Shown here: piece by piece, positions 17,473-45,239 of the stretch
Position numbering within the stretch: position 1 is the first letter of the stretch
Layout of the letters: each line of letters begins with the position of its first letter
Assembly (NCBI GenBank): GCA_050013255.1
Contig: JBEKFP010000001.1
Span: 1,312,001-1,376,000, forward strand
DNA length: 64,000 bases
Origin: Candidatus Bathyarchaeia archaeon
GTDB taxonomy: Archaea; Thermoproteota; Bathyarchaeia; 40CM-2-53-6
Reading direction: 5' to 3'
Position numbers and translations under genes: made by a program
Notes under the pieces: model-generated
The model's input: only the letters and a program-made list of their open reading frames with translations
What the model was told of the DNA's origin: nothing
The model's database searches: none

Positions 17473-17500
17473 AGAACGAAGGGAAAGATAGACAAACCGC

Positions 17501-18202: not shown

Positions 18203-18258
18203 TCAGAACACACGAGAGTCCTCTGTTCTAGCAGATTTGTAGTTTTCGTGTGTGTGTG

Positions 18259-18272: not shown

Positions 18273-18405
18273 CACACACACACACACTTTGAAACGGTTG
18301 GAGTAGGTATTTGTGGTTAGGGGAAGTGTCGCCTAACAAGCCCTCCGGCCGGATGCACGGAATCCGACTCCCGAAAGATCCCTCTCCAGACCCGGCCGCA
18401 TGTGT
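18273..18405 (+). repeat. Left terminal inverted repeat
   Basis: cacac..tttgaaacggttgg..gttagggga..cctaacaa..cggaatccg..acccggccgcatgtgt; about 80% identical to the reverse complement of 34424-34555 by manual alignment. Confidence 0.92.
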
Positions 18406-18474
18406 CATTTGGCAGAAATCCAGCCGGAACCGGACTTTGCGCACTAATGGAACCAATAGGACGGAAGAATCTTC

Positions 18475-18545
18475 AGTTCAAATTTGGTCGTCCGCACCAT
18501 TGGTACCATCACACTAAACGAACGACAAACATTGGTTCGATTACT
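18475..18545 (+). repeat. Internal tRNA-3'-like target site plus degenerate end module
   Basis: agttcaaat-N10-gcacca, core cgcaccattggtac (18493-18506), followed by catcacactaaacgaacgac. Confidence 0.7.
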
Positions 18546-18553
18546 ACATCAAG

Positions 18554-19363: not shown

Positions 19364-19655
19364 TTAGCAGACCTAGGTAAATGGAGGGCACAGACCCTTC
19401 CGTTTGCAACCGGCAGGCAACTACTGCCGTATGAAGTATGCCTAACGCTCGGTAATAATTCTGGTGCCAATTTCCATCGTAATTGTAGCCCCCACATAAA
19501 TCAAGGACGGTTCAAACCTGCCTTCCCGCACGAAGAGATTCACAGACACTGAAAATTGAACGAACGACGGCGGTTCATGTGAGTCTACTGCTGGAACGAA
19601 AAGAAAATCTAGTATCGCAAGTGATCCCCCCTTCACATTGAAAACGAGTGTGCAT

Positions 19656-21344: not shown

Positions 21345-21416
21345 CTCAGGAAGACGCGGTCTGATGTTTCATTTAGTACTTATGGAGTCGAAAACCAAGG
21401 GCTCCTTGTCGATCCG

Positions 21417-22640: not shown

Positions 22641-23641
22641 CTTTGATCCTCCAGATCAAGAGCGGATAATAATGCGTAGCTGTCTTCGCGAAGCCATCCT
22701 CGGATCTCATTGAAGATGTCCCCGCGTTCTGACCACAGCTTCTCCAACCTATCCAAATCAGCCCAAGGCTTGGCCATATGATTGAACACAATCTTCCGCC
22801 CTACCCCTGTGAGTCGATTGATGTGCTTTGACGCCCCACGCGATAGTCTCCACCACACTTGGAAATCTGCAGATCGAAGGAAATCCAAAACCTCTACAAC
22901 CAACCGCATGTAACGTTTCGCCAGCTCGGGGTTCGACCAAGCCAAATCAATGAGCTCCAATATACTCTGCTTCGATTGCGCGCGAGCTTTGACTGTCGCC
23001 TCCGCGTGGAAGTCAACGAAGTGAGCAAAGGCCTTGAGAATAGCTTCGCGAACAGGTGTTCGAGAAATCATTTCGTCCGCTTCAAGCAAACGCTGCGCCA
23101 GATCGTCTTCAGAAGCCTGCTCAATGTTGAGACCCTTGTGAGATAATTCTCTTAACACTGCGAGAAGTCGATTCTTTCCATCAATTGGTTGCAGAAACAG
23201 GACCAACATTGTCTGCGCCAAGTTTGCGTGTAAGACACAAGTTCTGATCAGTGAGGGAAAGGTCTTCGATTGAAGGATCTTGGGAAAGGCTGCACAAAGA
23301 ATAACACCTTTGTCGGTGAGAGTATAGCTGAACCTTTTGACTCGCTTCTCACTGGTTTCCTGCCTTCGACGAAGTAATCCAAGGTCATGGAGGAGCGGGA
23401 GCACTCTTCGTCTGGTTTCTCCTCCGACCTGATAGTCCTTCACGAGGAGGTAATTGTTGACCTTGCCATTTTCAGCCGCAACCAAAACAACTGCAAGAGT
23501 TGCATGGAGACCCTTCTTGACCATAGGGTCGTAGGCTGGGCTCCTGAAGTTCAGGCTAGGAAACAGCATGAGTAACTCAGGATCTGCCCGAGCCGCATCC
23601 TTCTGCATTCTTCTAAAATCTAGCTGAGCCTTTGTTCCCAT
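22637..23641 (-). CDS. Winged-HTH protein translationally coupled to cas1
   Basis: LHDLGLL...YTLTDKG wHTH wing signature; 4-bp ATGA overlap with cas1. Confidence 0.7.
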   Translation of the reverse strand: MGTKAQLDFRRMQKDAARADPELLMLFPSLNFRSPAYDPMVKKGLHATLAVVLVAAENGKVNNYLLVKDYQVGGETRRRVLPLLHDLGLLRRRQETSEKRVKRFSYTLTDKGVILCAAFPKILQSKTFPSLIRTCVLHANLAQTMLVLFLQPIDGKNRLLAVLRELSHKGLNIEQASEDDLAQRLLEADEMISRTPVREAILKAFAHFVDFHAEATVKARAQSKQSILELIDLAWSNPELAKRYMRLVVEVLDFLRSADFQVWWRLSRGASKHINRLTGVGRKIVFNHMAKPWADLDRLEKLWSERGDIFNEIRGWLREDSYALLSALDLEDQR

Positions 23642-23682
23642 TATACTGTCAGTCTCCTATGCTGTCAGTTGACAGTATACTG
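23642..23682. promoter_or_regulatory. Candidate operator in the divergent promoter region
   Basis: tatactgtca (23642-51) / tgacagtata (23670-79) inverted pair; ctgtca-gt-tgacag and cagtatactg palindromes. Confidence 0.45.
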
Positions 23683-23741
23683 CCCGTACTTCATGACATA
23701 AACTTCGCCTTTTGCTAGACTTCACGTGAGGTCAAGAGTAA

Positions 23742-24110
23742 ATGAAGATGGTTCGATCGTATAGTATGACTGTCAGCAACACATGGTATGACAAAGAGGC
23801 GGGGGGAGCGAAAGAATACGAGTTGCACTTTACCGTCGCAAGACGAGGCAGCATCAAGACAGTTCGTCGAAGGTTAGCCCGTAGAGGAGTTCCATACTTT
23901 CAAAACTACGTCTACGGCCGCGTGAAAAAGTGGATTCCTAGGAAGAATGTCAAAGTCCGCTTCGAGCGCGAGGAACCCGCTGCGAAAAGTGAAGGGAAGA
24001 TCAGCATCGAGGGTCGGAACATGTTGTTCCGGGGGAGGCGATGGTGGGCGTACCCACTCGGCAAGTTGCAGTTGAGCTACGCGAAAAGGAGGCGAAAACG
24101 AGGTGCGTAA
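23742..24110 (+). CDS. Basic hypothetical protein
   Basis: 122 aa, Arg/Lys-rich; overlaps the next ORF. Confidence 0.6.
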   Translation: MKMVRSYSMTVSNTWYDKEAGGAKEYELHFTVARRGSIKTVRRRLARRGVPYFQNYVYGRVKKWIPRKNVKVRFEREEPAAKSEGKISIEGRNMLFRGRRWWAYPLGKLQLSYAKRRRKRGA

Positions 24111-24468
24111 CGTAAACGTCCTAAAGGTCGATAAGGACTGCGTGGTACCGGAGAACTGGATTCAGGATTACATATCGGTAGTTTTGACCGTCTGCAAGTG
24201 GTTCGGAGTTTCGGTCATATCGATCGGGGCTTGCAAGAGTCGCATGAAGGGCCTTCACTTCTACATCGAAATAGCACCATCTGTCGAACCGGAAGTTGCC
24301 AACCGTCTTCAATGGCTCATAGGCGACGACTGCCAGCGCGTGGACTTCAACCGGGCCCGCATAGAATCAGGACTTGATTGTTGGAATAAATTGTTTGAAG
24401 TCGCCGGCAGAAGGTTGCGAACAATCTACGGAACCCAACAGCATTCGCTGAGAAACACCGCGTATTGA
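24103..24468 (+). CDS. Putative minimal AEP-superfamily primase-polymerase catalytic domain
   Basis: hhDxD (LKVDKD), SxxxGhH (SRMKGLHFY) and a distal Asp (GDD) in AEP motif order. Confidence 0.5.
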   Translation: MRNVNVLKVDKDCVVPENWIQDYISVVLTVCKWFGVSVISIGACKSRMKGLHFYIEIAPSVEPEVANRLQWLIGDDCQRVDFNRARIESGLDCWNKLFEVAGRRLRTIYGTQQHSLRNTAY

Positions 24469-24489
24469 CTGACAGGACTAGCGAGTCGT

Positions 24490-25611
24490 ATGAAGACTTC
24501 GAAGTCTCGTAACTCTCGTAACCTTAATGTCAAACCATCTAGACCTGGTGTGAACTTCAAGTTACGCAAATTACATGCCCCTGCGTCCAAGAAAAATTAC
24601 GCCGTCAGGCTTGAAGAGTATTACAACAAGAAGTTCGGGCAGGTAGTAACACCCGTCGCAATTCTGAAAACCCTCGCTGTAATCAGCTCCACCTTCAAGG
24701 GTAACGTTAAACTCTGGATTTTGAACGTCGCTCCCTCCCGGCATCTGAAAACCCAGACCACCCAAGAACAGGCTCAAATCTTTCCGAAGGGCAAGGTCGT
24801 TTACCTCGGATCAGACTTCACGATTCACGGACTCATACGAGACTATGATTCAGGACGCGAGATCAACAACAAGTGCCTTCTCATAAATGACATGACCCTG
24901 TTGCTCGCGAGTAAAGCAAAGCAGACGAAAGCTAGGTTGATCGATGCTTTATCGGAGCTTGCGAGTGAAGGAAAATACATCTATTCAGATTTCCAACACA
25001 CCTATGAAGTCAAGGCCCGCTTTGGTTTCATCGCGAACATTACTCCTCACTCGTTTCTGGTGAACCGGAACAACATGCTCGGCAACACCTTCACTGAACG
25101 CTGCCTAGTAGTGTACCATTGGTTAACAGATGCAGAGATGAGTGAAGGAAATCTTTCGCGGGCAAACCGGACGAGCATGCGAATAGAACGGTTCAAGCAG
25201 ACGATTACGGAAGCTGAGGTCAAAGTGACAGATGAGGACCTAGTGCGATTCGACGAGTACGCAAAGCGATGGCGAATCTTGGGCAGTTACTCAAGTTCAA
25301 GCAGCCTCTTCGACATGATTAAGTCGATGGCAACTGCGCATGCCATTCTAAGCGGTCGCAAGAAAATCACTCACAGCGTGTACAGATTCCTCGATATGAT
25401 TGAGCCTTACTTGAGGAACCCGAGCGAGAATGTGAAGTTGAAGATTCTTGAGCTTGCGCATCAGGGAAGGTCCATTCGCGATATTTGTAATATCCTTGAC
25501 AAGAAGTACGAGAAGTACCGCCCATTCGTTTCAAAGGTAATCTGGCAGTACCGCAAGAGAGGCGTGTTGTCCCCAAACACCTTCGAGAAAAAGGAACTTT
25601 TCGATAGATAG
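24490..25611 (+). CDS. AAA+/MCM-like ATPase domain with C-terminal HTH (divergent P-loop)
   Basis: VAPSRHLKT Walker-A-like, CLLIND Walker-B-like, SEGK, ERCL Arg-finger-like, GRSIRDIC HTH. Confidence 0.5.
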   Translation: MKTSKSRNSRNLNVKPSRPGVNFKLRKLHAPASKKNYAVRLEEYYNKKFGQVVTPVAILKTLAVISSTFKGNVKLWILNVAPSRHLKTQTTQEQAQIFPKGKVVYLGSDFTIHGLIRDYDSGREINNKCLLINDMTLLLASKAKQTKARLIDALSELASEGKYIYSDFQHTYEVKARFGFIANITPHSFLVNRNNMLGNTFTERCLVVYHWLTDAEMSEGNLSRANRTSMRIERFKQTITEAEVKVTDEDLVRFDEYAKRWRILGSYSSSSSLFDMIKSMATAHAILSGRKKITHSVYRFLDMIEPYLRNPSENVKLKILELAHQGRSIRDICNILDKKYEKYRPFVSKVIWQYRKRGVLSPNTFEKKELFDR

Positions 25612-25781
25612 AAAGGCGATAAGGAACTGAACGAAAATGTAGATTGAAAGTACCGTTGCGCGATATCCAACCAAATTCTGCGTAGTTACCCAATTTTCGC
25701 GCAATGAAATTTAATGTATCATTAATAGGACATAAACTTAAAGCGTGCTTTAGCATAACGTATAAGGAGAATTAAACCGAT

Positions 25782-26825
25782 ATGCGATATGTTCTAGACG
25801 TTCCAACAACGCTCGCCGATGAAATCAACAGACTGGTCGCGGCTGGCAAATACAAGACTCCACAAGACTTCATGCTACTTGGCATTCAAAATCAAGTGTA
25901 TCTCGAAACACAGTCAATCGAGTCGGAATCCGTTTCCGCCCAATCTCTAAGAGTGCACCCAAAACCGATCATGGGACCAGTTGATGCTGATGAATTTCTG
26001 TCCATGAACATCGATGGTGTGAAAACTGTTGAACTTAGCGAGCTGAAAAGGCAAGACGTTCTTTGGGGTCAGTACAACAGATTCTTGCCTGTCAAGATCG
26101 TAGTAAGAGTCGCGGCAAACCTTCTCAGAAGAAATGCGTCAGAGTATGTGTTGCTCTCCGATGTTCATGAAATAGCTGCGGCGACGGCTCGTCGCCTTGG
26201 CAAAGAAACTGCTAGAAATGATAAGCTGCTCGGACACAAAAGGGGCACAATAATATCCGCAGGATTGCCAATGGGCAAGGAGGACAAGTCGGCATCTCGA
26301 TTCAAGTATCAATTCGTTGGCTATGCTACTGCAGATAAGATGGAAGGTGCCGCACCTGTCCTGAAGTTTGTCGATATCACAAAGAAGGAGGGCACGGTTC
26401 TTCTAGGAATCACGGATTACGGGTTGAAGTTTGCTTCGTTTAGCAATCCTGTCATCGACAACCATGACTTCTCCTCTCCTATGTCTGAAGAGGAAGTGAA
26501 TTTTCTCCTCAATCACATTGCTCTCCAGGTCCCGGGCGAAGCAAGGCTCATCCACTTCATTCTTGATAGCGTGAACAAAGGACGCAAGACTCCTGAAGCA
26601 TTGAACGATAATATTAGGGCTGAATACGGGACGGTCTGGAAGGGCAAGAATGAACAAGCAACGATGCGATCTGGTGCAGTGAGCCGAATGAGTGAACTTG
26701 GTCTTCTCAAACGCGAGAAGGACGGAGTCAAGGTCACATATCTATTGACAGAGCGTGGGCGACAGTATCTGAATCGTCTTAAGGAGACCGGAGCTCCGAA
26801 GGTGGAGATCAAGCAATGGCCGTAA
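25782..26825 (+). CDS. DNA-binding protein with N-terminal ribbon-helix-helix and C-terminal wHTH
   Basis: MRYVLDVP..LVAAGKYKT RHH-like start; SRMSELGLL...YLLTERG. Confidence 0.6.
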   Translation: MRYVLDVPTTLADEINRLVAAGKYKTPQDFMLLGIQNQVYLETQSIESESVSAQSLRVHPKPIMGPVDADEFLSMNIDGVKTVELSELKRQDVLWGQYNRFLPVKIVVRVAANLLRRNASEYVLLSDVHEIAAATARRLGKETARNDKLLGHKRGTIISAGLPMGKEDKSASRFKYQFVGYATADKMEGAAPVLKFVDITKKEGTVLLGITDYGLKFASFSNPVIDNHDFSSPMSEEEVNFLLNHIALQVPGEARLIHFILDSVNKGRKTPEALNDNIRAEYGTVWKGKNEQATMRSGAVSRMSELGLLKREKDGVKVTYLLTERGRQYLNRLKETGAPKVEIKQWP

Positions 26826-27928
26826 GCCTGACTGCTTGTTCTTGCTCGTCCTCCTTTGACCTGATGATTTGTGCAAAGTGTGGAGGAACGCTATCAACCA
26901 ACACAATGCTTTCGAGACTTGACGATGGAACGCTACAATGGTTTTCTGAACTCGATTCAGACGGGCGACTTTCCTTTGCGCTTGCGAATTATGCGTCAAT
27001 CGATCGGCAAATCCGTCGAGGAATCCCAGCGACTACCATGCTTCAGACTCTGAAGGATACTATTTCCGGGCCAGGTGGCTTAACGGAAGAGATCGAAAAC
27101 AAGATCACCAAGAGATTCGAGGAGCTGCGTTGCGAGAACGAGAACTCCACAAAGCTTCTCAGGGAAATAGTAGTGGAGCAAGTGGGCGCAATCGTTGGAG
27201 AAATCAAGGGGTTAGTCGAACAGGGCAAATCCATTACAGACATCGAATCAAGGGTCAGGGAGGCGACGGGAGCTCTTCAGACGTATCTGACAGCTATTCG
27301 CATTCCTGCGCTTAAGGGGGAGGAGGGAGAGGTAAATGCGATTCGAGACCTTCAAGAGGCATTCATCGGACAGACATGTTTCAAGGTGGAGCCGATCGGT
27401 GGAGCTGATGCAACTGATGCAATCATCCACTTTCACCAAGCAGGAATCGAAATCGGCAGCTGCCTCGTGGAAGTGAAGTCCAGAAATAGTTGGAGCAATG
27501 ATTTTGTCGAGCAAGTCAGAGCCGATATGAAACGTTACGACGTTGCGCTGGCGATACTCGCTACCAACAAACTCCCAAAGTCCGCGAAAGGTAGAGGTTT
27601 TCGAGTCGACGGTGATTTCGGCCTGGTGGTTATCGCAAGCTCCGAGATGATCGTCCCAACCGTGAGCATGTATTACGAGATCTCTCTATCTACTCACAAT
27701 ATCCACAAGCACAACCTCGATCTAAAGTCAATAGCCGCCAATCGAGACCTGAGCTTCTATCTTAATGACAACATGAAGATACTCGCGATCTGCAAGCAAA
27801 TCTCCGATGCAACAGATGACTCAGCCCGCATAATCAAAGGGCATTTAGTGGACATCAGTTCGAGGCTACGAGAAAACAACGGTAAGATCGCATGCATACT
27901 GTCGGCCTCTACACGGGAGAGTCACTGA
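26816..27928 (+). CDS. Coiled-coil plus PD-(D/E)xK nuclease-like protein (RmuC/DUF2130-like)
   Basis: KGEEGE, D, VEVK motifs following a coiled coil. Confidence 0.65.
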   Translation: MAVSLTACSCSSSFDLMICAKCGGTLSTNTMLSRLDDGTLQWFSELDSDGRLSFALANYASIDRQIRRGIPATTMLQTLKDTISGPGGLTEEIENKITKRFEELRCENENSTKLLREIVVEQVGAIVGEIKGLVEQGKSITDIESRVREATGALQTYLTAIRIPALKGEEGEVNAIRDLQEAFIGQTCFKVEPIGGADATDAIIHFHQAGIEIGSCLVEVKSRNSWSNDFVEQVRADMKRYDVALAILATNKLPKSAKGRGFRVDGDFGLVVIASSEMIVPTVSMYYEISLSTHNIHKHNLDLKSIAANRDLSFYLNDNMKILAICKQISDATDDSARIIKGHLVDISSRLRENNGKIACILSASTRESH

Positions 27929-27932
27929 TCAA

Positions 27933-28304
27933 ATGAATCGGAAAACAACAGTAACAGGCAACGTTCCTAATGGTAACCCCTTTGAAAAGGGCCGTAGATT
28001 CGAATACAGGACAAGAAGTCACCTTTCGCGCCTCGGATGGTTTGTTATCAGGCAACCTCGCTCTGCATCACCCGATCTACTCGCTTTGAGAAAGGGCATT
28101 ATCTTGTTAGTCGAATGCAAAATCCGCGGATACATACCTCCGAAACAGCGCCGACGCATGATGCGATTGACGAAGAGCAACCCCGGCGCTAAAGCAGTGC
28201 TCGCAATGAAAAGCGAAAACGGACTTCTTTTTCGGGAATTATCACGTCGGTCATCAAGATATGATAAGCCGTTTGACCCCGATCCGGGGAAAACGTTAGC
28301 GTAA
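27933..28304 (+). CDS. Archaeal Holliday-junction-resolvase-like (Hjc) PD-(D/E)xK nuclease
   Basis: KGRRFE, GWFVIR, SPDLLA, VECK. Confidence 0.8.
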   Translation: MNRKTTVTGNVPNGNPFEKGRRFEYRTRSHLSRLGWFVIRQPRSASPDLLALRKGIILLVECKIRGYIPPKQRRRMMRLTKSNPGAKAVLAMKSENGLLFRELSRRSSRYDKPFDPDPGKTLA

Positions 28305-28321
28305 CTAGATGTGAAAAGGAA

Positions 28322-28999
28322 TTGGGACAGGCACCACCAGAAAGATCCGTGGCTAAGGAAGCTGCGCTTCGAAAAGTCTGTAAGCCTTTCGGATGGGAGA
28401 AGTACCAAAATATCGATTTAAACAGGTTAGCAGCTTACGCAATTCATATGCTCGCACGCAAAAGCGTCCTTGTGACTTTCGAGAATGTTGTTGTCGCGCT
28501 CTTTATCATGTTCCCTAGGAAATTCTGTTTGCCAGTCTACGAACACTACCCAGACTCAAGTCGGGTAAACCGAGCTCTTCTGCAATTGCGTCCCAAGTAT
28601 CGAAATTGGGCAACCGGGTCCCCGGTGAGGGGATTCAAGCTCACATCAACTGGAATTGCTATAGCTGAGGATACAGCGAAAGCTCTAACGAATCCTGCTC
28701 CCTTATCTAAGGAACCTCCCCGCATGATAAAGCCCCGAACGTTCTCTCCACAACTTGAGATTGAAAATCGGGTGCTTAATCGTGAAATCTTTTCTAAGTA
28801 CGACAAGAATCAAGTAGACCAAATAGATGGTATGGAAGTTCTCGAGCTCCTTCGAGCGGTGCCTCACACACCTCCCAACATACTGAGAGGTCATCTCCGT
28901 GAACTTGAGAACATAGCCAAGGAAGCGCACAGCACAACAGCACTGGAGTTTCTCAGGTTCTTGCGACACCAATTCTCGTCTCTATTCGAGGAGAGTTGA
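28322..28999 (+). CDS. Hypothetical protein with wHTH-like region
   Basis: YPDSSRVNRAL...FKLTSTG; operonic spacing. Confidence 0.6.
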   Translation: MGQAPPERSVAKEAALRKVCKPFGWEKYQNIDLNRLAAYAIHMLARKSVLVTFENVVVALFIMFPRKFCLPVYEHYPDSSRVNRALLQLRPKYRNWATGSPVRGFKLTSTGIAIAEDTAKALTNPAPLSKEPPRMIKPRTFSPQLEIENRVLNREIFSKYDKNQVDQIDGMEVLELLRAVPHTPPNILRGHLRELENIAKEAHSTTALEFLRFLRHQFSSLFEES

Positions 29000-29002
29000 A
29001 AG

Positions 29003-31255
29003 ATGGTAGAAATTGAAGTTAAGGACAGTGCAAGATTCATTCGGAGGCACATGAACAAGGCTCTACGACGCAGCTATCTGAAGGCACTCACTGAACCCAT
29101 CACAAATAGTGACGACAGTTATGGAAGGATCGAGAAGTCATCCCCATCTGATTTGTCACCCAAAATCATTCGAGTATATGCCTCCCCGAGAAAGAAGCAA
29201 TTCGATGTTCTAGATCTCGCTGAGGGGATTTCAAACGAAGAAATGATCAATCTATTCAGAGAATACGGTGAAGAAAAAAGAACCCACGAAATGGGAGGAC
29301 GAGGTATCTTCGGACAAGGATTGTCTGATGTACTATTTAGTAGAGAAGAGGGGGGATGGGTTCACTCAGTTAAAGATGAAGTCTATTCGGTAGCTCAGTT
29401 CAAATGGAAGAAAAAGAAAGAGAACGGAGTTTTGAAAGAACGTCGCATAATAAGAGTGCCCGGGGCAACTCGCGCGGACAGAGGAGCTAGAGAGCGTTTG
29501 AGACTACCAGAGCATAGTGGTACAGTCGTGTCATTCAAGTTCACTGAGGCTCCCTTCCCAGCTAAGGAAATACTCATTCAACGCCTATCGCAGTTTCACA
29601 TGCTTCGACTGATAAACTCGAACTCGCGTCGCAAAATCATCGTGCATTATGCTGATGAAAATGAAGAGGAAGAGCATGAGATTCGATATGAGTTTCCGCA
29701 GGGGAAGCTCATCGGGAATCTTGCAACAACCATGAAATACGATGGCGTTGACATCTCAATTGGAGGGGAGCTGTATAGATCCGACGAGCCTCTCCTTCAA
29801 AGAGAAGCGGGTGAGGATAGGCAGGGAGGGTTACTTGTCTTTGATGAAGAAGCTAGCGTTCTCGACTTGACACTCTTTGGCTATGATGAAGACCCTTTGG
29901 CGGTGCGGTTCTGGGGAAGATTGAGCCTAAAGGGCGCCCGAACCCTAGTCAGAAAGAAACTCCAAGAGCAGGACGAAATCCTTACTGAGACTCGAGATGG
30001 CTTTGTTAAGACTCACGGATTCTACGCCAAGCTAAAGCCCATCGTAGATGAGTGGTTGAAACCCTTTATCGAAGCAGAGAGAGCGAGAATCAGTCAGCAA
30101 GAATCTGCCCTCACCGAGAAGACGCACCAGGAGCATCGCAAAGCGTTCCAGATGCTTAGCGAACTGAATAGAGAGATCAACCAAGATGTTACCATCTTGT
30201 CACCTGGCACAGGAGAGGGTGGCACTGAGGAGAAACCAAAAAACGGTATAGAATTCGCCAATGAAAATTTGACGCTGCGGAAAGGCGTGAGGTATTCTGT
30301 CCAACTTCGTGTTGATGCTCGTGTGATATCTCCTGGAACGATCATCAAAATAACATCTCAAAATCCGAGCCTAAAAGTCAAACCTCGTAAACATATCGTG
30401 ACTCCACTTGCTGCTTTGCCCGATGACGAAATTGACAGAAAACGCATCATACTCTCTTGCGACTCCGTTGGAGTCAATACAAAGGTCCAGGCCAAGGCAA
30501 AGAGCCATCGAGCGGAACTAACTGCCCTCGTGGTGGAAATACCACGTTCGGAGGAGTTACCTAAGATAGTCACATTGGAACAACCCTTGGAGTTTCGACC
30601 GAGCTCGGCTCGCAGAAAGCCAGGTGCGTCCGGAACACTGCATCTGTTCATTGATAGAGAGCGGATTCCCAAAGCATCTTCAGTTCTGTTCAGTTGCAGC
30701 AATGACCGGATCAGGTTGCAATCAACAACGGTCTCCGTTTCTGCAGGAAGTGTGATCTCTGATAAAGTATCAAGAATCGATATGAACTTCGTCGGTTACA
30801 GCGAGGGGCAGACTGGCGTTGTTAAAGCGGCATGCGGTGAATGCTTTGCTGAAGCAACTGTGAAGATTACCTCGGCAGAAGGATTTGGTGATCTGTTCGT
30901 CGATTGGGATTATAGAGAAATTCACGCTGTCTTCCAAGCATATTTCGAGAAAGAGACTGGACTTGTGATTCTTAACTCAACACATCCGGTCAACAAACAG
31001 TATTTCGGAACGGATAAACCACAGGCTCATCTTGCAGTGGAAAATCAGCCACATTGTCAAATGCTCCTAGCTACCTTGATCCTCGATGTGTGTCTATGGT
31101 ACATCTACAGCGAAGCTTACAAGAACAACAGACTCGAACTTACAGACTGGTGGGAAATACAAAGATACATCGAAGAGGGAAAGCACAGGCTTGGAAAGGA
31201 ATTCATGTCTAGGTTTCTGAAACAGCCAGTTTTTGCGCAGGCTCACGAAGCCTAA
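29003..31255 (+). CDS. GHKL (HATPase_c/MORC-like) ATPase with C-terminal beta-rich domains
   Basis: EPITNSDD (N box), DLAEGI (G1), GRGIFGQG (G2), SGT. Confidence 0.8.
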   Translation: MVEIEVKDSARFIRRHMNKALRRSYLKALTEPITNSDDSYGRIEKSSPSDLSPKIIRVYASPRKKQFDVLDLAEGISNEEMINLFREYGEEKRTHEMGGRGIFGQGLSDVLFSREEGGWVHSVKDEVYSVAQFKWKKKKENGVLKERRIIRVPGATRADRGARERLRLPEHSGTVVSFKFTEAPFPAKEILIQRLSQFHMLRLINSNSRRKIIVHYADENEEEEHEIRYEFPQGKLIGNLATTMKYDGVDISIGGELYRSDEPLLQREAGEDRQGGLLVFDEEASVLDLTLFGYDEDPLAVRFWGRLSLKGARTLVRKKLQEQDEILTETRDGFVKTHGFYAKLKPIVDEWLKPFIEAERARISQQESALTEKTHQEHRKAFQMLSELNREINQDVTILSPGTGEGGTEEKPKNGIEFANENLTLRKGVRYSVQLRVDARVISPGTIIKITSQNPSLKVKPRKHIVTPLAALPDDEIDRKRIILSCDSVGVNTKVQAKAKSHRAELTALVVEIPRSEELPKIVTLEQPLEFRPSSARRKPGASGTLHLFIDRERIPKASSVLFSCSNDRIRLQSTTVSVSAGSVISDKVSRIDMNFVGYSEGQTGVVKAACGECFAEATVKITSAEGFGDLFVDWDYREIHAVFQAYFEKETGLVILNSTHPVNKQYFGTDKPQAHLAVENQPHCQMLLATLILDVCLWYIYSEAYKNNRLELTDWWEIQRYIEEGKHRLGKEFMSRFLKQPVFAQAHEA

Positions 31256-32588
31256 TTGTCGAAACTATTACCGGGTAAGACAGTTTCTTCTCTCGCTGCA
31301 ACCAGTTTTGCTCTGAAAACATGTCAGTAACGGCTATCTTGCGATCGTAGGAGATGTTTCTCTTTGAGTAGATCCACATTGTACGACTTTCTCCCTTCAA
31401 GATTGATCTGAGTTCACGGAGTGTAACGACCTTCACCAGCGTTTCAATACCATATTTCGACAGGGGGGGTTTACTCAGTTGTTTTCTAGCTTTAGTCTCC
31501 ATCAACCTTCTGCTTCTTTTCGAGGATTCGCTCCCTACTATCAAGTGGATGTCCTCTGCAGTTATCTTGTAACCTGGTGCCTTTGGCGAGAGGGGGCGCT
31601 CAACAGCTACCGCGAATCTGGTATTCGACATCGCATATTTGCCCATTGATCTCACCAGCATACGCGGTAACTTGATCAACCTGAGTTTTCGTATGTTTGA
31701 TTCGAAATTCGCGGTTTCCTTTGCGTCTATTTGTCGGAGTTCAGATCTTACTTCTCGTCTAATTGTCTTGTAGAAATTTCTGACGTACTTCCTTTGGACC
31801 TCGAATCCAGTAGACATACGACCCATACACTCCGCAGTTGCAAGAACTATCCCGGAACCGGCAAATGGATCTAGAACGATGTCATCAGGATCCGTGGTAA
31901 GTAGCAGCATTCTGCGAACCAACTCTACGGGAAATGGACAGAGATGGTAATGATTCAGCTTATTGTGGCGCCAGGATCCTTGAACTGGAATGCCGATTTT
32001 CCACACATCTGTGGGAGCAACTCCTTTTGGTGAATATCGCTCAGGATACTTCACCCACCAGCTACGAAAGTTGTCCGGGTCGGAGTCCCTAACCGCATCA
32101 GTTCGGAGTTCAAGATGGTTTTTTGCAAAAAGAAGAACATACTCGAATACATTTCTAAGTCCCGCCGTCGACCAAGGCAAATTCTTGTCTTTTTGCCAAA
32201 TGACAATATCCTTCAGTTTCCACCCTACATCTTTCATTCTACGAGCCAAGTCGAATGGCAGAGGGACGACTTCGCTATCTACCATGAACGTATTGCAAAC
32301 TAGCCAAAACGATCCACTCTCAGAAGTGAGGGAATATACTAGCTTGAAAATTCCGGTTAAAGTGTCCAGATATTTCTCGTACGTTTTCTCGTGTCCAATT
32401 TGGCGGTCGGCTTCATAATCCTTGAGCTTGTAGTATGGTGGAGAGGTTATGGTTGTGGACAGTCCAGGCCATTCAGGATCATTCAAGGCACGTTGAGCGA
32501 TAGCTTGGAGACCGTGTCTCGCATCCTGATGATGAAAGCCGAAAACTGTCCGGAATTTCGAATGAAGAGCCGATGTCCCGGCTCTCAT
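31209..32588 (-). CDS. Site-specific DNA methyltransferase (N4-C/N6-A, beta-type motif order)
   Basis: TSPPY precedes DPFAGSG; HLCPFP. Confidence 0.92.
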   Translation of the reverse strand: MRAGTSALHSKFRTVFGFHHQDARHGLQAIAQRALNDPEWPGLSTTITSPPYYKLKDYEADRQIGHEKTYEKYLDTLTGIFKLVYSLTSESGSFWLVCNTFMVDSEVVPLPFDLARRMKDVGWKLKDIVIWQKDKNLPWSTAGLRNVFEYVLLFAKNHLELRTDAVRDSDPDNFRSWWVKYPERYSPKGVAPTDVWKIGIPVQGSWRHNKLNHYHLCPFPVELVRRMLLLTTDPDDIVLDPFAGSGIVLATAECMGRMSTGFEVQRKYVRNFYKTIRREVRSELRQIDAKETANFESNIRKLRLIKLPRMLVRSMGKYAMSNTRFAVAVERPLSPKAPGYKITAEDIHLIVGSESSKRSRRLMETKARKQLSKPPLSKYGIETLVKVVTLRELRSILKGESRTMWIYSKRNISYDRKIAVTDMFSEQNWLQREKKLSYPVIVSTIRLREPAQKLAVSET

Positions 32589-34291
32589 TTCTTCTTGCCG
32601 CCTGATAAGTGTGCGAGTTTGATTTTATTGTGCTGGTTTAGTACATCGATGATCCTGTTAGCCAATCCTCTGAACGCTTGCCATCCGGTGCCGTACTTCG
32701 CGATCATGGAACTTGTGAATGACAGTGATGCGACGGGTTTCAAGTATTTCTCTAGGTCACTTAGGATCTTCTCCCTGTCTTCTTTTGATGATCCTAAGAT
32801 CTGCGTTAAGACCAAGAGCAACGCGTTTACTGCAACACTTTTCGTCACTCCGTATTTCTTCGAATCATCCCACGCGCCAGGTCTAGCATCTTCCAAGTGT
32901 TGTCTTACCAGAGTAAAATAATGCGAAAGCAGATTGACTTGCTTTTGTAGGCTCTTCACATTCGATGGATCGTCCACTGACTTGTTTACGTCGAACTTCG
33001 CATAGGTATAGAGCGGCCCAACATAGTGTATTTCGCCCGTCGTTTTGTCAACATGATTTTTCAAGAGTTCAACAGCCAAGGCGAACTTGGCAAATCCCGC
33101 CAAGGTAATCGGTCTGTCTTTTTCAATTTCAAGTACTCTGATCTTATTTTTCCACGGATCGCGAGAACTCAATGACTTAACCACAAGCGAAGGCCAAGTC
33201 AGATAGTGTTTGAGATCCTTAGTCAGACTCAGTAGGTCACAGAGGAGGGTTGGATCTATTCCCACTTGATTGTAGTTAATATCGATGAATGATTTCGCTT
33301 GGCTTTCACGACCGATGTTCTTCAATCCCACTACGATAAGATCGAATTTCTCTTGGGGCTGCGGCGAGTCAGGTGGTGGTTCCGAGAACTTCGTTCGTGT
33401 GAAGCCATATAGTCGATGCTGACCATCTACGATCCATGCAGAACAATATTTCTTCGGAATTTGGAGGATGCCTTCGAGTGGATTTGAGGCGCTCTTTGTG
33501 AATATGACTTCGCTGGCGATTTCGTCATCAAAAGCGATGAGTATTGCATTTGGGATGAGTGCACGACCAGCTAGAAAACGCCCAATCTCTTCTATGCGAC
33601 GCTCTCGAATCATTCTTTGATATGCAAATTCTGGCTTGAAACTTCGTCGAAAAACATAGGAAATAGGCAAAAGCTGATGAGGCGCAAGAGTAAATATGTA
33701 CATTTCTTGGTTGTTACCGATTCCGGGCTGTCTAACCATTATCGCCGGCCTGGGAACTGAGCCCCCCTCTTCCTCTCTTTCGATTTCGAAGTCTTTGAAG
33801 ACGGCATACTTAGTCCACTTACCGAGAGCTTTCACGATGTGACCATAGTAATCGAGCGCTGGTCCATTCAGAACTTGTACTTCACGATCCGCGGCATATT
33901 TCATCATTTCCTCATTAGGTGCATAGTTGTCTAGTGCGATAACCATCTTCACCCTCGTTGTCTTATCAAGGACGGTGGCGGTGAACCTCCCGTCTAGACT
34001 GGTTTTGATCGTAAGTGTTCCCTTTTCTCTGACGATTTCATCACGCCAATGACACCATTTGTCCACCAGGTTTTGGAACTTGACGTTGGCCGCTGTTGTG
34101 CAGTACGTGATCACAAGAACCTCTTGATGCCAAGCACAGACGTCCAGGTCAGTTTCTGAACTGGTCGTTGTCAAAATCTTGACTGCTCTGTCAGTGAGGA
34201 AGTCAGATCTCTCAAAAATTGATTTGACTCTATTTATGAGGGGAAGATCTTTCTGTCTGTCGCCGTGTGAGTCAGCAGGCATATCTTCCAT
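32585..34291 (-). CDS. DGQHR-domain (DndB-like) protein with N-terminal nuclease-like domain
   Basis: YQRM, IPNAILI, IVDGQHRL, FIDIN; start uncertain (34282-34372). Confidence 0.85.
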   Translation of the reverse strand: MEDMPADSHGDRQKDLPLINRVKSIFERSDFLTDRAVKILTTTSSETDLDVCAWHQEVLVITYCTTAANVKFQNLVDKWCHWRDEIVREKGTLTIKTSLDGRFTATVLDKTTRVKMVIALDNYAPNEEMMKYAADREVQVLNGPALDYYGHIVKALGKWTKYAVFKDFEIEREEEGGSVPRPAIMVRQPGIGNNQEMYIFTLAPHQLLPISYVFRRSFKPEFAYQRMIRERRIEEIGRFLAGRALIPNAILIAFDDEIASEVIFTKSASNPLEGILQIPKKYCSAWIVDGQHRLYGFTRTKFSEPPPDSPQPQEKFDLIVVGLKNIGRESQAKSFIDINYNQVGIDPTLLCDLLSLTKDLKHYLTWPSLVVKSLSSRDPWKNKIRVLEIEKDRPITLAGFAKFALAVELLKNHVDKTTGEIHYVGPLYTYAKFDVNKSVDDPSNVKSLQKQVNLLSHYFTLVRQHLEDARPGAWDDSKKYGVTKSVAVNALLLVLTQILGSSKEDREKILSDLEKYLKPVASLSFTSSMIAKYGTGWQAFRGLANRIIDVLNQHNKIKLAHLSGGKKK

Positions 34292-34423
34292 CCGCCAAGT
34301 GCCCTCTATTTGATTCTTATTGTTATGCGACTGTGGCCTGATTAGGGGTTGCGCAACGCGTATTCTTCGCATCTGTGGAACAAATAAGATTCAGAACTGA
34401 AACAGCTTCCTTCCGATCATCCA

Positions 34424-34555
34424 ACACATGCGGCCGGGTGAGGACAGTGATCCTTGATGGGCCGGATTCCGGGAGTCCGGCTGGATGGATTTGTTAGGGG
34501 GCACCTCCCCTAACAGCAAACACCTACACCAACCGTTTCAAAGTGTGTGTGTGTG
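34424..34555 (-). repeat. Right terminal inverted repeat
   Basis: Reverse complement matches 18273-18405; the 27 bp (CA run + tttgaaacggttgg) match perfectly. Confidence 0.92.
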
Positions 34556-34624
34556 GGTCTAATGGTGCGAGCGCTCGAATTTGAACCGGTTCATATATAC
34601 CGGTAAATTGGGGTCAGAATCCCC
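34556..34624 (-). repeat. Right TSD (34556-34569) plus tRNA-3'-like leader repeat (copy 2)
   Basis: Minus strand reads ggttcaaat-tcgagcgctc-gcacca-ttagacc. Confidence 0.92.
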
Positions 34625-34719
34625 TGCCCCGCACCACGTACGAATCCCAGACATTTCAGAAGTTTTGAGTAGTATCAGTCTTGGTCTCTATTCTTTGATC
34701 ATCCGCTGGGGTCTTGATT

Positions 34720-40914: not shown

Positions 40915-40990
40915 GGGTTCTGACCCCAATTTACCGGTACATATAACTCGGTTCAAATTTGCTTGCCCGCACCAGCTGACCCACACACAC
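40915..40990 (+). repeat. Leader repeat (copy 3, inverted) + core cgcaccagctgacc (40968-40981) + (CA)n
   Basis: ttctgaccccaatttaccggtacatataactc-ggttcaaat-ttgcttgccc-gcacca. Confidence 0.92.
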
Positions 40991-43396
40991 ATCAAACGAA
41001 CGACGTTCCGATTTTGAACGGCCGCGCCAGTGATATTACAGACTAAGCGAGGCTTCTATTTTGTTAGGCCACACTGTTTCCTGAGCTTCTTCACCAGTTC
41101 CAGGTATCGGGGGTCGGCCCTTGCCCTGGCGAAGAGGGGCGAGTACGTCACCGCTGAAACAACTAATGCACGGGCTTCGAGGGCCGTGTTCAAGTACTCG
41201 AAGAAGGAGTCGAGGTCTCCGAGAGCATGGTAGACGTACGCGATGAAGTTGAAGCCTACTGGACCCGGTTTGGCGTCCTCAATCTTCTTGATCGCGAGGA
41301 GCGCCTTCTCGCTGTCGCCCTCCATGGCCGCGATGAACCCGCCCATCCAGGTGACCCGAGGATTGGTGGGATCGAGCTTCTCCAATTTCGCAAGGAGCTC
41401 CTTAGCCTTCTCTAGGTCCCCTTTGGCTAGGTAGTACTCCGTCATACCCCTGTACGCGAACGCCGGCGCCAGCTGCTCACCCTTCTTCCAGAACTCCAAC
41501 GCCTCCTGCTCCCTCCCAGTCCAGAGATATGCCTCCCCGACACGGTAGATGAAGTCGGGTCTGATGGGGTCCAGTCGGTAGGCTGTCTCGATCTGTCCAA
41601 CCATCTCCCCCGGATCTCCTTTGAGTGCCGCCAGCTCGAACAGGTTCCAGTAGGGGTCTGGAAGGTTAGGGTTGAGTTCCAGCGCCCTTCTGGCCTCCGC
41701 CTCTGAACCGACGACGTCGTCCTCGTTGAAGAGCATGGTCGAGAGCGACGAGTGGGCCTCCGGAAGGTTCGGGTCGAGGTTGAGGGCGCGCTCCAGTAGT
41801 CGCCTCACAGTCGCGACGGAGATGTCAACGGGCTCACTTCCTTTGTCAGAAAGTAATTGGTGACATTCTGCCTCGCCCACGTACGCTCTCGCGAATCTGG
41901 GATCCAGCTCGATGGCCTTCTCGAAGAGAGCTATGGCCTGCCTAAGTGAAGCCTCGGTCTGCTCCCTCAACAGTTCCCTGCCCCGCAGGAAGCAGGTGTA
42001 CGCCTCAGTGTTCTCGGTAGGCTTCTTCTCCAGGGTTCTCTTCTCAGAGTCGAGGAGCTGGGTCTTGAGTTCTCCGGCGACCTTCTCAGCTATCTCGCTT
42101 TGGACGGCGAAGATGTCGTCCAGATTCTTGTCGTAGTGGGAAGACCAGAGGTGTTCTTCTGTTCCGGCGTTGATCAGCTGGACTGTGACCCTGATTCGGT
42201 TGCCTGCTTTCCTCACGCTGCCTTCTATCAGAGCCCCGATATTCAGTTCCTTTCCTACTTCCGAGGCTCCCTTCTGAGAGCCCTTGTACTTCATCACCGA
42301 CGTTCGAGCTATGACCCTCAGACTCTTCACTTGGGCAAGCCTGTCAATCAGCTCCTCAGTCATGCCGTCCGCGAAGTACCCATCTTCAGGGTTGGAACTC
42401 AGGTTTGCAAAAGGCAGAACTGCAATCCGCCTCTTGTCCAGGCCCAATCCGGTAGCCTCCTGTCTCTCGGCGGCTAACCCTTCAAGTGGAAACTCTTTCT
42501 CCGCGGTTTCGATTCCATGCATCCACTTGATTCGTAGGTACTTCCGCGTTCCGCCTTCAGATTCCTTCTCGAAGATCTCAACGTTGCCGTCGAAAAGGTC
42601 CACGACTGCCTGAACGTCCTCGGCTGAATGCATGTACGGGTTGAGGACGGATAGGGTTGTGATACTCTTCGACCGCAGCCGTTCAAGAAGTTCCGTAAGC
42701 CATTTCCGTGTCTGCAACGCCTTATGGCGAAGCAGAATGTCCGAGAGGATGTTGATAACCAAACGTTTCGGTTGAGTTGAAGCGATAACTTCATTGATTT
42801 GTAGGTTTACGTCCGTTAGGTTCTCGATTCCCTTCCCTGGGATGATGTTTCTTGCTGGTGAGACGGGTTTATCGCTGCAAACCAACGACCTGACATTCTT
42901 ACCCATATTTTGCGTAATCGTTTCGGCTGAGGAAATCGTGCGGCATATCAGTAGGGCCTCTTCCTTTGAGGCTCTGAGGAAGTTTGCAACGAGAAGCGGA
43001 ACCTCATCACTTGCAGCGGCATTCAAAACGATGGAAGAAGCTGCGAGAAAGCCGCCTTGAAGCGCTTCATCCAGCCTACCGTAACCAGTCGAAACCTTCG
43101 TGCTCACAGAACTGGCTGAGACGCCTTCAGAAGTCATATAACTCGCCATCAGTCACGACCTGCCAGATATACTAACTCCCGATAAGAGTTCTGCTTCACA
43201 TCCGCCTCCGCATTCTACACCTTGACGAAGCTTCCCCAGATAGTTACACAAGGATTGATGTTTGCTGGTGCTTTGGAAACGGCGGTCCTATCACAGACGG
43301 ACTGTCGATTCTAACCATTGTTCTCTTGTGTGTGGTATCACTGGTGCGTCCGTTCAAAATCGGAACGTCGTTCGTCTAGTTGTGTGTGTGTGTGCG
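40982..43396. mobile_element. Non-autonomous single-gene cassette (2.4 kb)
   Basis: ~55-bp inverted ends (acgaacgacgttccgattttgaacgg at 40996-41021 and its reverse complement at 43350-43375); identical 14-bp flanking direct repeats. Confidence 0.8.
41056..43149 (-). CDS. Fusion of degenerate KaiC-like domain, TolB-N-like domain (as in adenylate-cyclase/kinase fusions) and TPR repeats
   Basis: STGYGRLD..GGF; IAVLPFANLS...YFADGMTEELI, EGSVRKAGNRIRVTVQLI; TPR repeats. Confidence 0.85.
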   Translation of the reverse strand: MASYMTSEGVSASSVSTKVSTGYGRLDEALQGGFLAASSIVLNAAASDEVPLLVANFLRASKEEALLICRTISSAETITQNMGKNVRSLVCSDKPVSPARNIIPGKGIENLTDVNLQINEVIASTQPKRLVINILSDILLRHKALQTRKWLTELLERLRSKSITTLSVLNPYMHSAEDVQAVVDLFDGNVEIFEKESEGGTRKYLRIKWMHGIETAEKEFPLEGLAAERQEATGLGLDKRRIAVLPFANLSSNPEDGYFADGMTEELIDRLAQVKSLRVIARTSVMKYKGSQKGASEVGKELNIGALIEGSVRKAGNRIRVTVQLINAGTEEHLWSSHYDKNLDDIFAVQSEIAEKVAGELKTQLLDSEKRTLEKKPTENTEAYTCFLRGRELLREQTEASLRQAIALFEKAIELDPRFARAYVGEAECHQLLSDKGSEPVDISVATVRRLLERALNLDPNLPEAHSSLSTMLFNEDDVVGSEAEARRALELNPNLPDPYWNLFELAALKGDPGEMVGQIETAYRLDPIRPDFIYRVGEAYLWTGREQEALEFWKKGEQLAPAFAYRGMTEYYLAKGDLEKAKELLAKLEKLDPTNPRVTWMGGFIAAMEGDSEKALLAIKKIEDAKPGPVGFNFIAYVYHALGDLDSFFEYLNTALEARALVVSAVTYSPLFARARADPRYLELVKKLRKQCGLTK

Positions 43397-43483
43397 CGCA
43401 CCAGCTGACCACACACACACTTTTCCAAACGACGACGTACGACGGTTCAAATTACGACGCCCGCACCACCAGTACCACACACA
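43327..43483. repeat. Cluster of three junction/target cores (43335-48 minus, 43397-410 plus, 43462-75 plus) joined by two linker modules
   Basis: Read directly from the sequence. Confidence 0.92.
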
Positions 43484-43486
43484 TTT

Positions 43487-44224
43487 CTACTGAACTATCG
43501 TTACTTCGCCGGTCTCTGAAACGTTCAGTCGTTGCCATCGTGAGTCGAATTTCTTACCGCGCATTCTTCTGATCCGCACAAGTTGCGTGATCTCTCCCTC
43601 TTTATCTTCACATTTGAAGTCGATAATTCCATCGTTAATCGTCTCAAACTGAGAGCGAAACGTTTCCGACACTGTTCCCTTCAGGATTGAATAAATGGTT
43701 ACGTTCTGAAGGGGTCTTGAGAAAGGAATATGTCTCGTTCGCCAAAAATCCAGCACATTAATCTCGGCATTGTATCTTGTCATAATGGCAGTGTTATCAT
43801 CGACATGTACCCACCACTTTTCGCCCTCAGGAATTCCCTTCTCTCTTCCCTTCTTGACGAATTGGGCGTGGTTGATGCTTAGGTCAGGAATCTTCAGTGA
43901 TTTGGCGACCGGATCCTCCTGCTCAACGGGATTTAGTCCCCCCATCTGCACAGTAAGACTGTCCACGATCCGGAACAAACCGTCATCTTGAAGCTTGGCA
44001 AGGTCTAATCCGAATTTTCTCAGATCGTGTTCTATATCGGCCGGAGGGTGCTGGAATGTATGGTACAATGCCTTGTGGTCGTTCCTTAGTGCCTGGGCTG
44101 TAATCGTTAGCGAAGCTTCGTACCATGCGGAGTCTGGCTCGAATTCTACCAGTAAATTGCTGCCAAATTCAACGCCATCTGGAAGAAGTCGTTCAAAGAT
44201 GGGAATGAACAGATTTGTTAGCAA
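43487..44224 (-). CDS. KaiC/RAD55-like protein with degenerate Walker A
   Basis: EFEPDSAW, DGIIDF, RIRRMRG; start placed at TTG 44224 because the ORF-track extension runs through the repeats. Confidence 0.8.
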   Translation of the reverse strand: MLTNLFIPIFERLLPDGVEFGSNLLVEFEPDSAWYEASLTITAQALRNDHKALYHTFQHPPADIEHDLRKFGLDLAKLQDDGLFRIVDSLTVQMGGLNPVEQEDPVAKSLKIPDLSINHAQFVKKGREKGIPEGEKWWVHVDDNTAIMTRYNAEINVLDFWRTRHIPFSRPLQNVTIYSILKGTVSETFRSQFETINDGIIDFKCEDKEGEITQLVRIRRMRGKKFDSRWQRLNVSETGEVTIVQ

Positions 44225-44292
44225 ATCCCTTGTCCAATATCTGATAACTCCGAATAGCTTGAATTTCTGTCTTCCGATTACGCGCCCCAGTT

Positions 44293-44383
44293 GTGTGTGC
44301 CTACAATGGTGCGAGCATCGAAATTTGAACCGTCGTCCGTCGTCTTTAGAAAGTGTGTGTGGTATGCTGGTGCGCACACACAC
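44293..44383 (-). repeat. Two cores (44300-13, 44361-74) joined by a linker module
   Basis: gtgtgtg-cctacaatggtgcg-agcatcgaaatttgaaccgtcgtccgtcgtctttagaaa-gtgtgtgt-ggtatgctggtgcg-cacacacac. Confidence 0.92.
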
Positions 44384-44400
44384 AGAAAATCCTGAGGCCT

Positions 44401-45102
44401 CTACTTGTCGAGGGTGACTTCGAAATTGTCACCGATCTTGACTTGATGCCAGTGTGAATCGAAGTGCGCGTCCCTCATGCTCCTTATTCGAATCATGGTT
44501 CTTGTCTCTTCGGCTACTTCTTCGAGTTTGAAATCTATGATCCCGTCAGCAGCTGCTTCCAACTGCTTGTAGACAGAGTCGCTGTGAAAGCCCCTAATCA
44601 ACCCCGCTAAGTTCGTCGATTTACGCAACTTCTGGGCTGGAAAGTTTCTTGTGAGCAGATACTCAACCCATGACCGCTCATCGTTGAACCTAGCGAATGT
44701 TGAGATGTTGTCGGCGATTCTCAACCAGTTAGGATCAGGTGGCTCGCGCATGACCTGTCTCGAAAAGACTATGTTTAGATCGGCAGCCTTCAACGATTCC
44801 TGCGAATACTTCTCACTTGATTTGAGACCCAGCGTAGCCGTGTACCAATCCTGAATACGAAGTTTGTCTTCCTTTTCGAGGCTTTCGACACTAACCCCGA
44901 GTCTGCTAAGTTTGGAACGAATGTCATCCGGTGTTTGGGTGAATAAGTTGTAACTGACTTTCCCTCCCTGCTTGAGCCATCCTGCCGCGATCGTCAGAGA
45001 CGCATTGATCCATTGCGACGCAGGATCAAACTCCACTAACAGCATGGAACCGCCCGGGACGGGGTCGGTAGTCAAATCCTCTATCATAGGAATCTTGGGC
45101 AA
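44401..45102 (-). CDS. KaiC/RAD55-like protein with degenerate Walker A
   Basis: Paralog of 17501-18202, same length (233 aa). Confidence 0.8.
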   Translation of the reverse strand: MPKIPMIEDLTTDPVPGGSMLLVEFDPASQWINASLTIAAGWLKQGGKVSYNLFTQTPDDIRSKLSRLGVSVESLEKEDKLRIQDWYTATLGLKSSEKYSQESLKAADLNIVFSRQVMREPPDPNWLRIADNISTFARFNDERSWVEYLLTRNFPAQKLRKSTNLAGLIRGFHSDSVYKQLEAAADGIIDFKLEEVAEETRTMIRIRSMRDAHFDSHWHQVKIGDNFEVTLDK

Positions 45103-45153
45103 GTTCGGAGCACACAGTGGTCATGTGTCGAGTTTACAGATTTGGCGTTTTCT

Positions 45154-45185
45154 GTGTGTGTGCGCACCAGCTGACCCACACACAC
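45154..45185 (+). repeat. Junction site (TG)n - cgcaccagctgacc (45163-76) - (CA)n
   Basis: Core identical to 40968-81 and 43397-410. Confidence 0.95.
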
Positions 45186-45239
45186 AGATCCCTCCGTTTG
45201 GAGCCAAGAGTTATCATCTAGAGTTAGAGGCTCACACGA

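Follow-up and report, generated by a model that had tools for sequence, protein, structure and literature searches.

Why do the ends of many small gene cassettes in this archaeal locus carry what looks like a further copy of the site at which such cassettes land? The locus lies in a stretch of 64,000 nucleotides (the window; G000:C1:1312001-1376000) from a 2.46-Mb archaeal genome in three contigs, and positions without a contig prefix refer to this window. It was compared with the remainder of the genome and with 61 relatives; of the genus, 22 genomes were covered in the search for target motifs and 23 in that for linkers and cargo. Casposons are proposed ancestors of the CRISPR adaptation machinery, and one of the units in the window encodes a Cas1-type casposase. 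An earlier note on this DNA had proposed that each insertion delivers fresh landing pads, such that the island grows by nesting. We propose, with moderate confidence, that the cassettes are non-autonomous derivatives of a family-2 casposon that have no Cas1, and that the linkers at their ends are landing-pad modules.

The units of the island start with (CA)n and finish with (TG)n, and abutting units are separated by a 14-nt core, CGCACCA-N7, in either orientation. A linker comprises an outer tip, a spacer of 8-27 nt that is often ACGACG-rich, a T-loop-like box (T-box), a 14-nt core and the next tip. The earlier reading, in which cassette ends bring with them a target copy that faces inwards (termed here a pad), is supported. 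Pads in this genome read GTTCAAaTT-N5-GCc-CGCACCA-N7. CACACACAC occurs 27 times in the window compared with 0.41 expected, and T-box-N5-GCY-CGCACCA-N7-CACAC occurs 23 times in the genome, with no occurrence of the reversed control. The repeats are therefore far beyond chance. The features of the two arrays are listed in Table 1.

Table 1. Mobile units, linkers, pads and cores of the island, by position in the window
Feature	Position	Strand	Remarks
Linker, left end of cassette 12039-12859	12039..12100	+	Pad degenerate, unoccupied (CGCACGATCCTCCC); host cargo directly after
Linker-1 copy	17397..17449	-	Right end of unit 12874-17449; pad core degenerate (17374-17396)
Junction core CGCACCAGCCTACC	17450..17463	.	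Between (TG)n tip and (CA)n tip
KaiC-like 233-aa cassette, without linker	17464..18258	-	
Cas1 element, candidate PolB-less casposon	18273..34555		Inverted repeats of ~130 nt and 14-nt duplication
Pad-like site inside Cas1 element	18476..18537	+	T-box, CGCACCATTGGTAC (~18476-18513), then CATCACAC; degenerate linker after
Putative family-2-type casposase (Cas1 with C-terminal HTH domain)	21417..22640	-	Pfam Cas_Cas1 7.3e-49
Chromosomal leader-A pad, copy b	34570..34640	-	Serves array on its left
Chromosomal leader-A pad, copy c	40915..40981	+	Leader 40915-40967; core CGCACCAGCTGACC 40968-40981
KaiC-TPR cassette	40982..43396	-	Linker-2 inverted repeats of 60-70 nt, 40982-41043 / 43328-43396; perfect 14-nt duplication flanking
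Outer (CA)n tip	43410..43420	+	Left end of unit 43410-44361 and of composite 43410-45162
Linker family 1	43421..43461	+	ACGACG-rich spacer, T-loop-like box GTTCAAATT 43445-43453, GCC
Linker-borne 14-nt pad core CGCACCACCAGTAC	43462..43475	+	
KaiC-like ATPase cargo cassette	43476..44299	-	Pfam KaiC 4.3e-10; inner tips CACACACA ... TGTGTGTG
Inverted linker-1 copy	44300..44361	-	Core CCTACAATGGTGCG, T-box 44322-44330, spacer, outer (TG)n tip 44353-44361
Junction core GGTATGCTGGTGCG	44361..44374	.	Flipped counterpart of 17450-17463
KaiC-like 233-aa cassette, without linker	44375..45162	-	Paralogue of 17464-18258

Family-2 elements of M. mazei produce a 14 bp duplication that starts with CGCA and overlaps the 3' end of a tRNA, and their target requires ~30 bp of upstream tRNA sequence (PMC6977970, PMC4779613). 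The pad anatomy matches this published family-2 target. A real tRNA of this genome that is recognised by the tRNA model (C1:1132371-1132499; C1:1132371-1132510 with the tip) ends in ...GGGTTCAAATCCCGGCGGCCGCA-CCA with the same spacing as in the pads and is followed by a degenerate tip. The linker appears to mimic the casposase target, a tRNA 3' end with a CGCA-type duplication. The linker box is tRNA-like by motif and spacing only, and a whole tRNA gene or tRNA-like RNA was rejected, as ARAGORN called no tRNA gene in the window and the linkers gave no match to the Rfam tRNA covariance model at E<=1.

The T-loop motif of these sites, together with the occurrence of one gene per cassette and a repeated site between genes, could also point to integron-like or tyrosine-recombinase sites, or to regulatory, UTR or tRNA-like RNA elements of the adjacent genes. 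We consider such an origin very improbable. Contig C1 has no match to PF00589, and folding of the linkers is no better than that of shuffled sequences (z of 0.18 and 0.09), so that structured attC-like sites and an integron attC or tyrosine-recombinase cassette site were both discarded. Moreover, linkers lie at both ends of genes, in both orientations and independently of cargo, the tRNA model does not match them, and the 14-nt CGCA duplications fit a casposase.

Two further sets of sites were noted in the genome. Sequences at C1:254452, C1:716074 and C2:744711 are like pads and continue with GGGGATATTACATA(A/G)GGCTCATTT in place of CACAC; they seem to mark a second family of element ends that uses the same target. 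Four identical copies of a tRNA 3' half (GGGGTTCGAATCCCC..CCCCCGCACCA; C1:211613, 310403, 525004 and 1244148) are matched by the models in the T-arm and acceptor portion alone, and none of the four is followed by a CACAC tip. ARAGORN pairs three of the copies with 5' parts at a distance of 1.6-2.1 kb, and they may represent split or long-intron tRNA genes.

The Cas1 element holds one of only two Cas1 genes in the genome. The alignment of its casposase with that of M. mazei (6OPM; E 3.9e-74) covers residues 4-402 of 407, HTH domain included. As in known casposons, a Cas1-type casposase with a C-terminal HTH is accompanied by terminal inverted repeats (TIRs) and by a duplication of fixed length (14 bp, 5'-CGCA): GGTCTAATGGTGCG, the reverse complement of CGCACCATTAGACC, abuts the element on both sides (18259-18272 and 34556-34569), with a third copy at 12023-12036. 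No PolB domain was found among the ORFs of the element. The three PF00136 (PolB) matches in the genome are all on contig C2, and a search with the PF03175 profile gave no match, although its control likewise gave none. The cargo includes AbiU/AIPR-like, methyltransferase, DpdB/DndB-like and Hjc-like genes. The element lies at a T-loop-like box with tRNA spacing, yet there is no tRNA gene there. From its sequence, the element would thus work like a family-2 casposon, but it has no PolB. The target-like site that the earlier note placed inside the element is indeed present from ~18476, and its core (18500) has no duplication partner within 45 kb.

The closest known counterparts are the M. mazei casposons MetMaz-C1 and MetMaz1FA1A3-C2 (casposase 6OPM), which resemble the present system in their HTH casposase, 14-bp CGCA duplication, need for an upstream leader, terminal inverted repeats and tandem elements on one common duplication. 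Here, however, the Cas1 element lacks PolB, the tips are (CA)n and there are dozens of Cas1-less gene cassettes. The targets are mostly mimics of tRNA ends, many of them inside element ends, a situation not reported in the papers searched.

The insertions in the window that are proven by duplications use two chromosomal leader pads, copies b and c of leader A (about 65-77 nt, inverted), which flank a 6.3-kb segment and face away from it. Each is followed by three identical cores in series. On the right, CGCACCAGCTGACC is present at 40968-40981, 43397-43410 and 45163-45176, thereby bracketing the KaiC-TPR cassette 40982-43396 and the composite 43410-45162; on the left, GGTCTAATGGTGCG at 34556, 18259 and 12023 brackets the Cas1 element and the composite 12039-18258. 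Three-core series are the stacking that would be expected if newcomers land at the leader-proximal copy. The right-hand units 40982-43396 and 43410-45162 have (CA)n tips in common with the Cas1 element and are flanked by CGCACCAGCTGACC. They have the make-up of mini-casposons, namely casposon tips and a duplication of the same length and motif, with no casposase gene. In M. mazei, mini-casposons moved in trans and stacked into a resident duplication (PMC10359463); like the present cassettes they consist of Cas1-less DNA between casposon ends, and the M. mazei solo-TIRs are likewise short, end-only remnants adjoining CGCA sites (PMC10359463; PMC4779613). Those mini-casposons are laboratory constructs, however, and the solo-TIRs carry no target copy, whereas here the units are natural gene cassettes, many of which have a complete leader-plus-core pad.

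The genes of segment 34556-40981 are ordinary-looking (nitroreductase, Rieske/FMN reductase, MscL and saccharopine dehydrogenase). A third, degenerate and unoccupied leader-A copy lies at 11322-11419, and an inverted repeat of 37 nt (86% complementary; 11383-11419 / 46565-46601) brackets the whole 35-kb island. Its left copy runs on into leader-A sequence and the right copy does not, which suggests an old inversion or a recombination within the leader.

The linker relationships reported in the earlier note were reproduced. The 53 nt of 43412-43464 are 100% complementary to 17397-17449, and the diverged copy noted at 44314-44360 was recovered as an 84% inverted copy of 43414-43468 (44307-44361) and an 82% direct copy of 17397-17447 (44311-44361). 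The second linker family, placed near 40982-41036 and 43335-43396, comprises 48 nt that are 90% complementary (40996-41043 / 43328-43375). Among 210 pairwise comparisons of 21 linkers in the genome, the 100% pair is an outlier, the next best value being 0.90 and the median 0.62.

The pads on the two sides of cassette 43476-44299 are convergent, their N7 are unrelated (CCAGTAC / TTGTAGG), and the cassette has no direct duplication. In another reading, everything from the tip through spacer, T-box and core to the second (CA)n would form a single casposase-binding terminal inverted repeat of 60-75 nt, in which the inner core is not a target and the inner CA run not an element end. The ends of 40982-43396 are 90% complementary with the inner N7 included, and the inner cores of flanked cassettes are inverted rather than direct, as such a repeat would have them. 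However, a unit may bear two linkers that are unrelated to each other, as at C2:284207-287296, and in 43410-44361 the linker on the left matches one from another unit perfectly but its own partner at just 84% identity. Linkers are absent altogether from the Cas1 element and from several cassettes, and unique duplications, described below, fall exactly at inner cores. The most direct evidence comes from a relative, G011, where the region homologous to the KaiC cassette begins exactly at the inner tip; column identity is 83% across the full aligned stretch, and BLAST identity of the cargo is 82-83%. There the cassette is preceded by a linker that is shorter and unrelated and has a different N7, and this linker in turn lies behind a leader-A pad. 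Since the cassette follows a different linker and core, the inner tip is a real element end. The compound repeat is accordingly quite unlikely, and as sole explanation it was ruled out by the G011 cassette, the unique duplications and the CACACCTATGAAAAGTC family of elements, which is found behind three different linker pads and at one plain junction.

Linkers also differ from their cargo in distribution. They occur in 21 of 23 genus genomes, in dozens of copies each, compared with two or three of the 23 for the KaiC cargo of 43476-44299. Linkers are evidently not part of the cassette that they flank, linker and cargo being independent of each other, and 43476-44299 itself is a discrete mobile unit. 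Two other readings of these arrangements were set aside. If a palindromic double pad had been the target and 7, 14 or 28 nt had been duplicated, the flanks would differ from those seen at 43476-44299 and at C2:284260-285239, and a linker cannot be a mini-insert with its own duplication, as the flanking cores differ in every case of tandem linkers. KaiC/RecA-like ATPase genes are present in five cassettes (13724-14470, 17501-18202, 41056-43149, 43487-44280 and 44401-45102; one is fused to TPR repeats), a striking enrichment of one cargo type.

Direct evidence that linker pads receive insertions comes from outside the window. Three 14-mers occur exactly twice each in the 2.46 Mb, CGCACCATTAGAGC at C1:37900 and 42250, CGCACCATTGATAC at C2:287260 and 285253, and CGCACCATTAGAGG at C1:679354 and 682802. 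In each case one copy stands after a linker T-box, and its partner, in the same orientation, stands after a (TG)n tip that lies 2.0-4.3 kb downstream. In a fourth pair (C1:259503 / 257886) the 14-mer is commoner in the genome. At the level of sequence, these duplications demonstrate that linker pads of this genome are used as insertion targets. CACAC follows within 2 nt after 15 of 21 linker pads, two further pads have variant tips (one with a unique duplication) and two are unoccupied.

The core of the earlier proposal, ends that carry usable inward-facing targets, is thus supported for the genome and the genus. Nesting in place is not supported for the linkers flagged in the window, as the cores at 43462, 44300, 41023/43335 and 18500 have no direct duplication partner within 45 kb. 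The claim that each insertion delivers a fresh pad was contradicted: units 17464-18258, 44375-45162 and 45177-46540 have none, and the Cas1 element carries none in its inverted repeats of 130 nt. Nested linker cores were also to account for the mixture of core sequences, and they do so in part. The two leader pads give uniform three-core series, and the odd cores lie inside multi-cassette units that apparently moved whole. The mixture also calls for such joint movement of stacks and for cores that were carried along or flipped.

Three such composites (12039-18258, 43410-45162 and C1:37915-42249) have one flanking duplication each and unpaired internal cores, a pattern that would fit movement by any pair of outward-facing tips. 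The two in the window have a common paralogous module, consisting of linker-1, the junction and the KaiC-233 cassette (mean column identity 80% when the full alignment, with its non-homologous flanks, is counted), and the pad of this module has different occupants in its two copies. The 14-nt junction core of the module is flipped, CGCACCAGCCTACC in one and the reverse complement of CGCACCAGCATACC in the other, and the tips beside it can form a 9-bp hairpin stem. The flip could result from inversion of a hairpin loop, or from a target core carried along with the element. The 100% identical linkers part inside the core, after CGC(A)CCAC, a divergence that fits exchange within the core.

These observations bear on a rival that is still live, although we judge it unlikely, in which the linkers are a passive by-product. 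They would be fossil fragments of leader plus duplication, dragged along by moving stacks or by circular intermediates with their own duplication, and their pads would be hit now and then, neither driving nor explaining growth of the island. The divergence of identical linkers inside the core, the flipped junction core, the unpaired internal cores of the three composites and the degeneracy of several pads can all be read in this way, and work on M. mazei in vivo gives hints of a circular intermediate with its own target site and of a target replaced by the duplication of the element (PMC10359463). However, in linkers of 21 of the 23 genus genomes the T-box, CGCACCA and their exact spacing are kept while the spacers vary freely, which argues for constraint, and the three insertions with unique duplications in one genome show that pads are used.

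We return to the landing-pad reading. A family-2 casposase would join (CA)n-ended DNA into a target composed of a leader of ~17-30 bp that resembles a tRNA 3' end (GTTCAAATT-N5-GCC), followed by a 14-bp segment beginning CGCA(CCA) that is duplicated on insertion. A linker would place an inward-facing copy of this target just inside the outer tip of its element, such that an incoming cassette lands between the pad core and the host interior, leaving the host tip and linker outermost. If any pair of outward-facing tips can be used, neighbouring units and their linkers could move together as composites. Host tip, linker, pad and guest might then leave as one unit with a linker on one side, as in 12874-17449, and a one-sided unit that landed in an opposite-facing linker pad would become a double-linker unit. 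Composites of this type would give rise to cassettes enclosed by a pair of convergent, unrelated linkers (for instance 43410-44361), to tandem linkers, and to identical linkers on unrelated cargo such as those with the 53-nt identity. Simple insertion does not predict the convergent unrelated pads of 43476-44299, and these proposed steps of composite mobilisation are needed to account for them. We infer mobilisation in trans by the resident casposase, movement as composites and any selective, self-propagating role of the linkers from these arrangements.

The pad-plus-tip motif is present in 27 of the 61 relatives and in 18 of the 22 same-genus genomes (reversed control, 0), and casposase homologues in 19 of the 61; 14 relatives have both and 13 have pads only, all of these counts being descriptive since the genomes are akin to one another. 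As 13 of the 27 pad-bearing relatives have no casposase detected with this query, many arrays may be fossils. The near-complete genomes G016, G018, G021 and G011 have up to 26 pad-plus-tip motifs and, with this query, no casposase or only a fragment, and their arrays may be fossil or may depend on a divergent enzyme.

Four convergent double pads without cargo were found in relatives (L011-L014; G017:C1:294931, G017:C4:655824, G029:C10:37995 and G034:C31:3523). Their two pads are separated only by a run of 8-10 nt, (TG)4-5 or (CA)3-4, or of ~5-6 nt (CACACA) at G017:C4. That at G029:C10 (L012) has outer tips and forms a complete MITE-like unit of ~125 nt, and the three in G017 and G034 are tip-less. 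Linkers standing alone as MITE-like units, for which the earlier note proposed a test, are absent from the window, and the unit of G029 is a candidate for one; mini elements in the genome under study comprise one of 72 nt and one of 78 nt. The landing-pad model does not explain the cargo-less double pads, which could be excision footprints or primordial units.

The arrays share features with two other kinds of stacked DNA. As in CRISPR arrays, a Cas1-family integrase would insert beside a leader, a target of fixed length is duplicated per insertion and identical cores form series, here of three copies per leader pad. Unlike CRISPR spacers, the inserts are gene- or linker-sized mobile units with their own tips and in mixed orientations, and they bring along copies of the leader-like box. 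Integron arrays and the accretion of islands at tRNA genes are similar in that units, mostly of a single gene, accumulate at one specific site, where every new arrival provides a site that a later one can use. They differ from the present case, in which there is no tyrosine recombinase on contig C1, no folded attC-like site, and ends that are transposon tips with target duplications.

It is possible, and we suggest it tentatively, that in this lineage of Bathyarchaeia the casposase runs a natural gene-cassette system in which mobile units carry and spread copies of a leader-plus-repeat-like target, so that arrays seed new arrays. If so, the system would stand, as a living intermediate, between site-specific transposons, integrons and CRISPR arrays, and would provide natural evidence of casposon-type elements moving as composites and carrying target cores. 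Should the pads work as proposed, a Cas1 integrase would be building and seeding leader-plus-core arrays, a step that scenarios for the origin of CRISPR need. The tip, T-box and CGCA core would then be defined substrates for tests of target recognition by the casposase, and an abundant, uncultured archaeal group would possess a platform for gene capture. In the literature searched we found no natural non-autonomous casposon cassettes, cassette stacks or target-bearing element ends and nothing relevant on casposons of Bathyarchaeia.

Two other features of the window were noted. A direct repeat of 100 nt (78% identical; 579-678 / 5305-5404) has its copies 4.7 kb apart, within or adjoining coding regions, and a TPP riboswitch is predicted at 59218-59332 on the plus strand (71.1 bits compared with a gathering score of 54.3).
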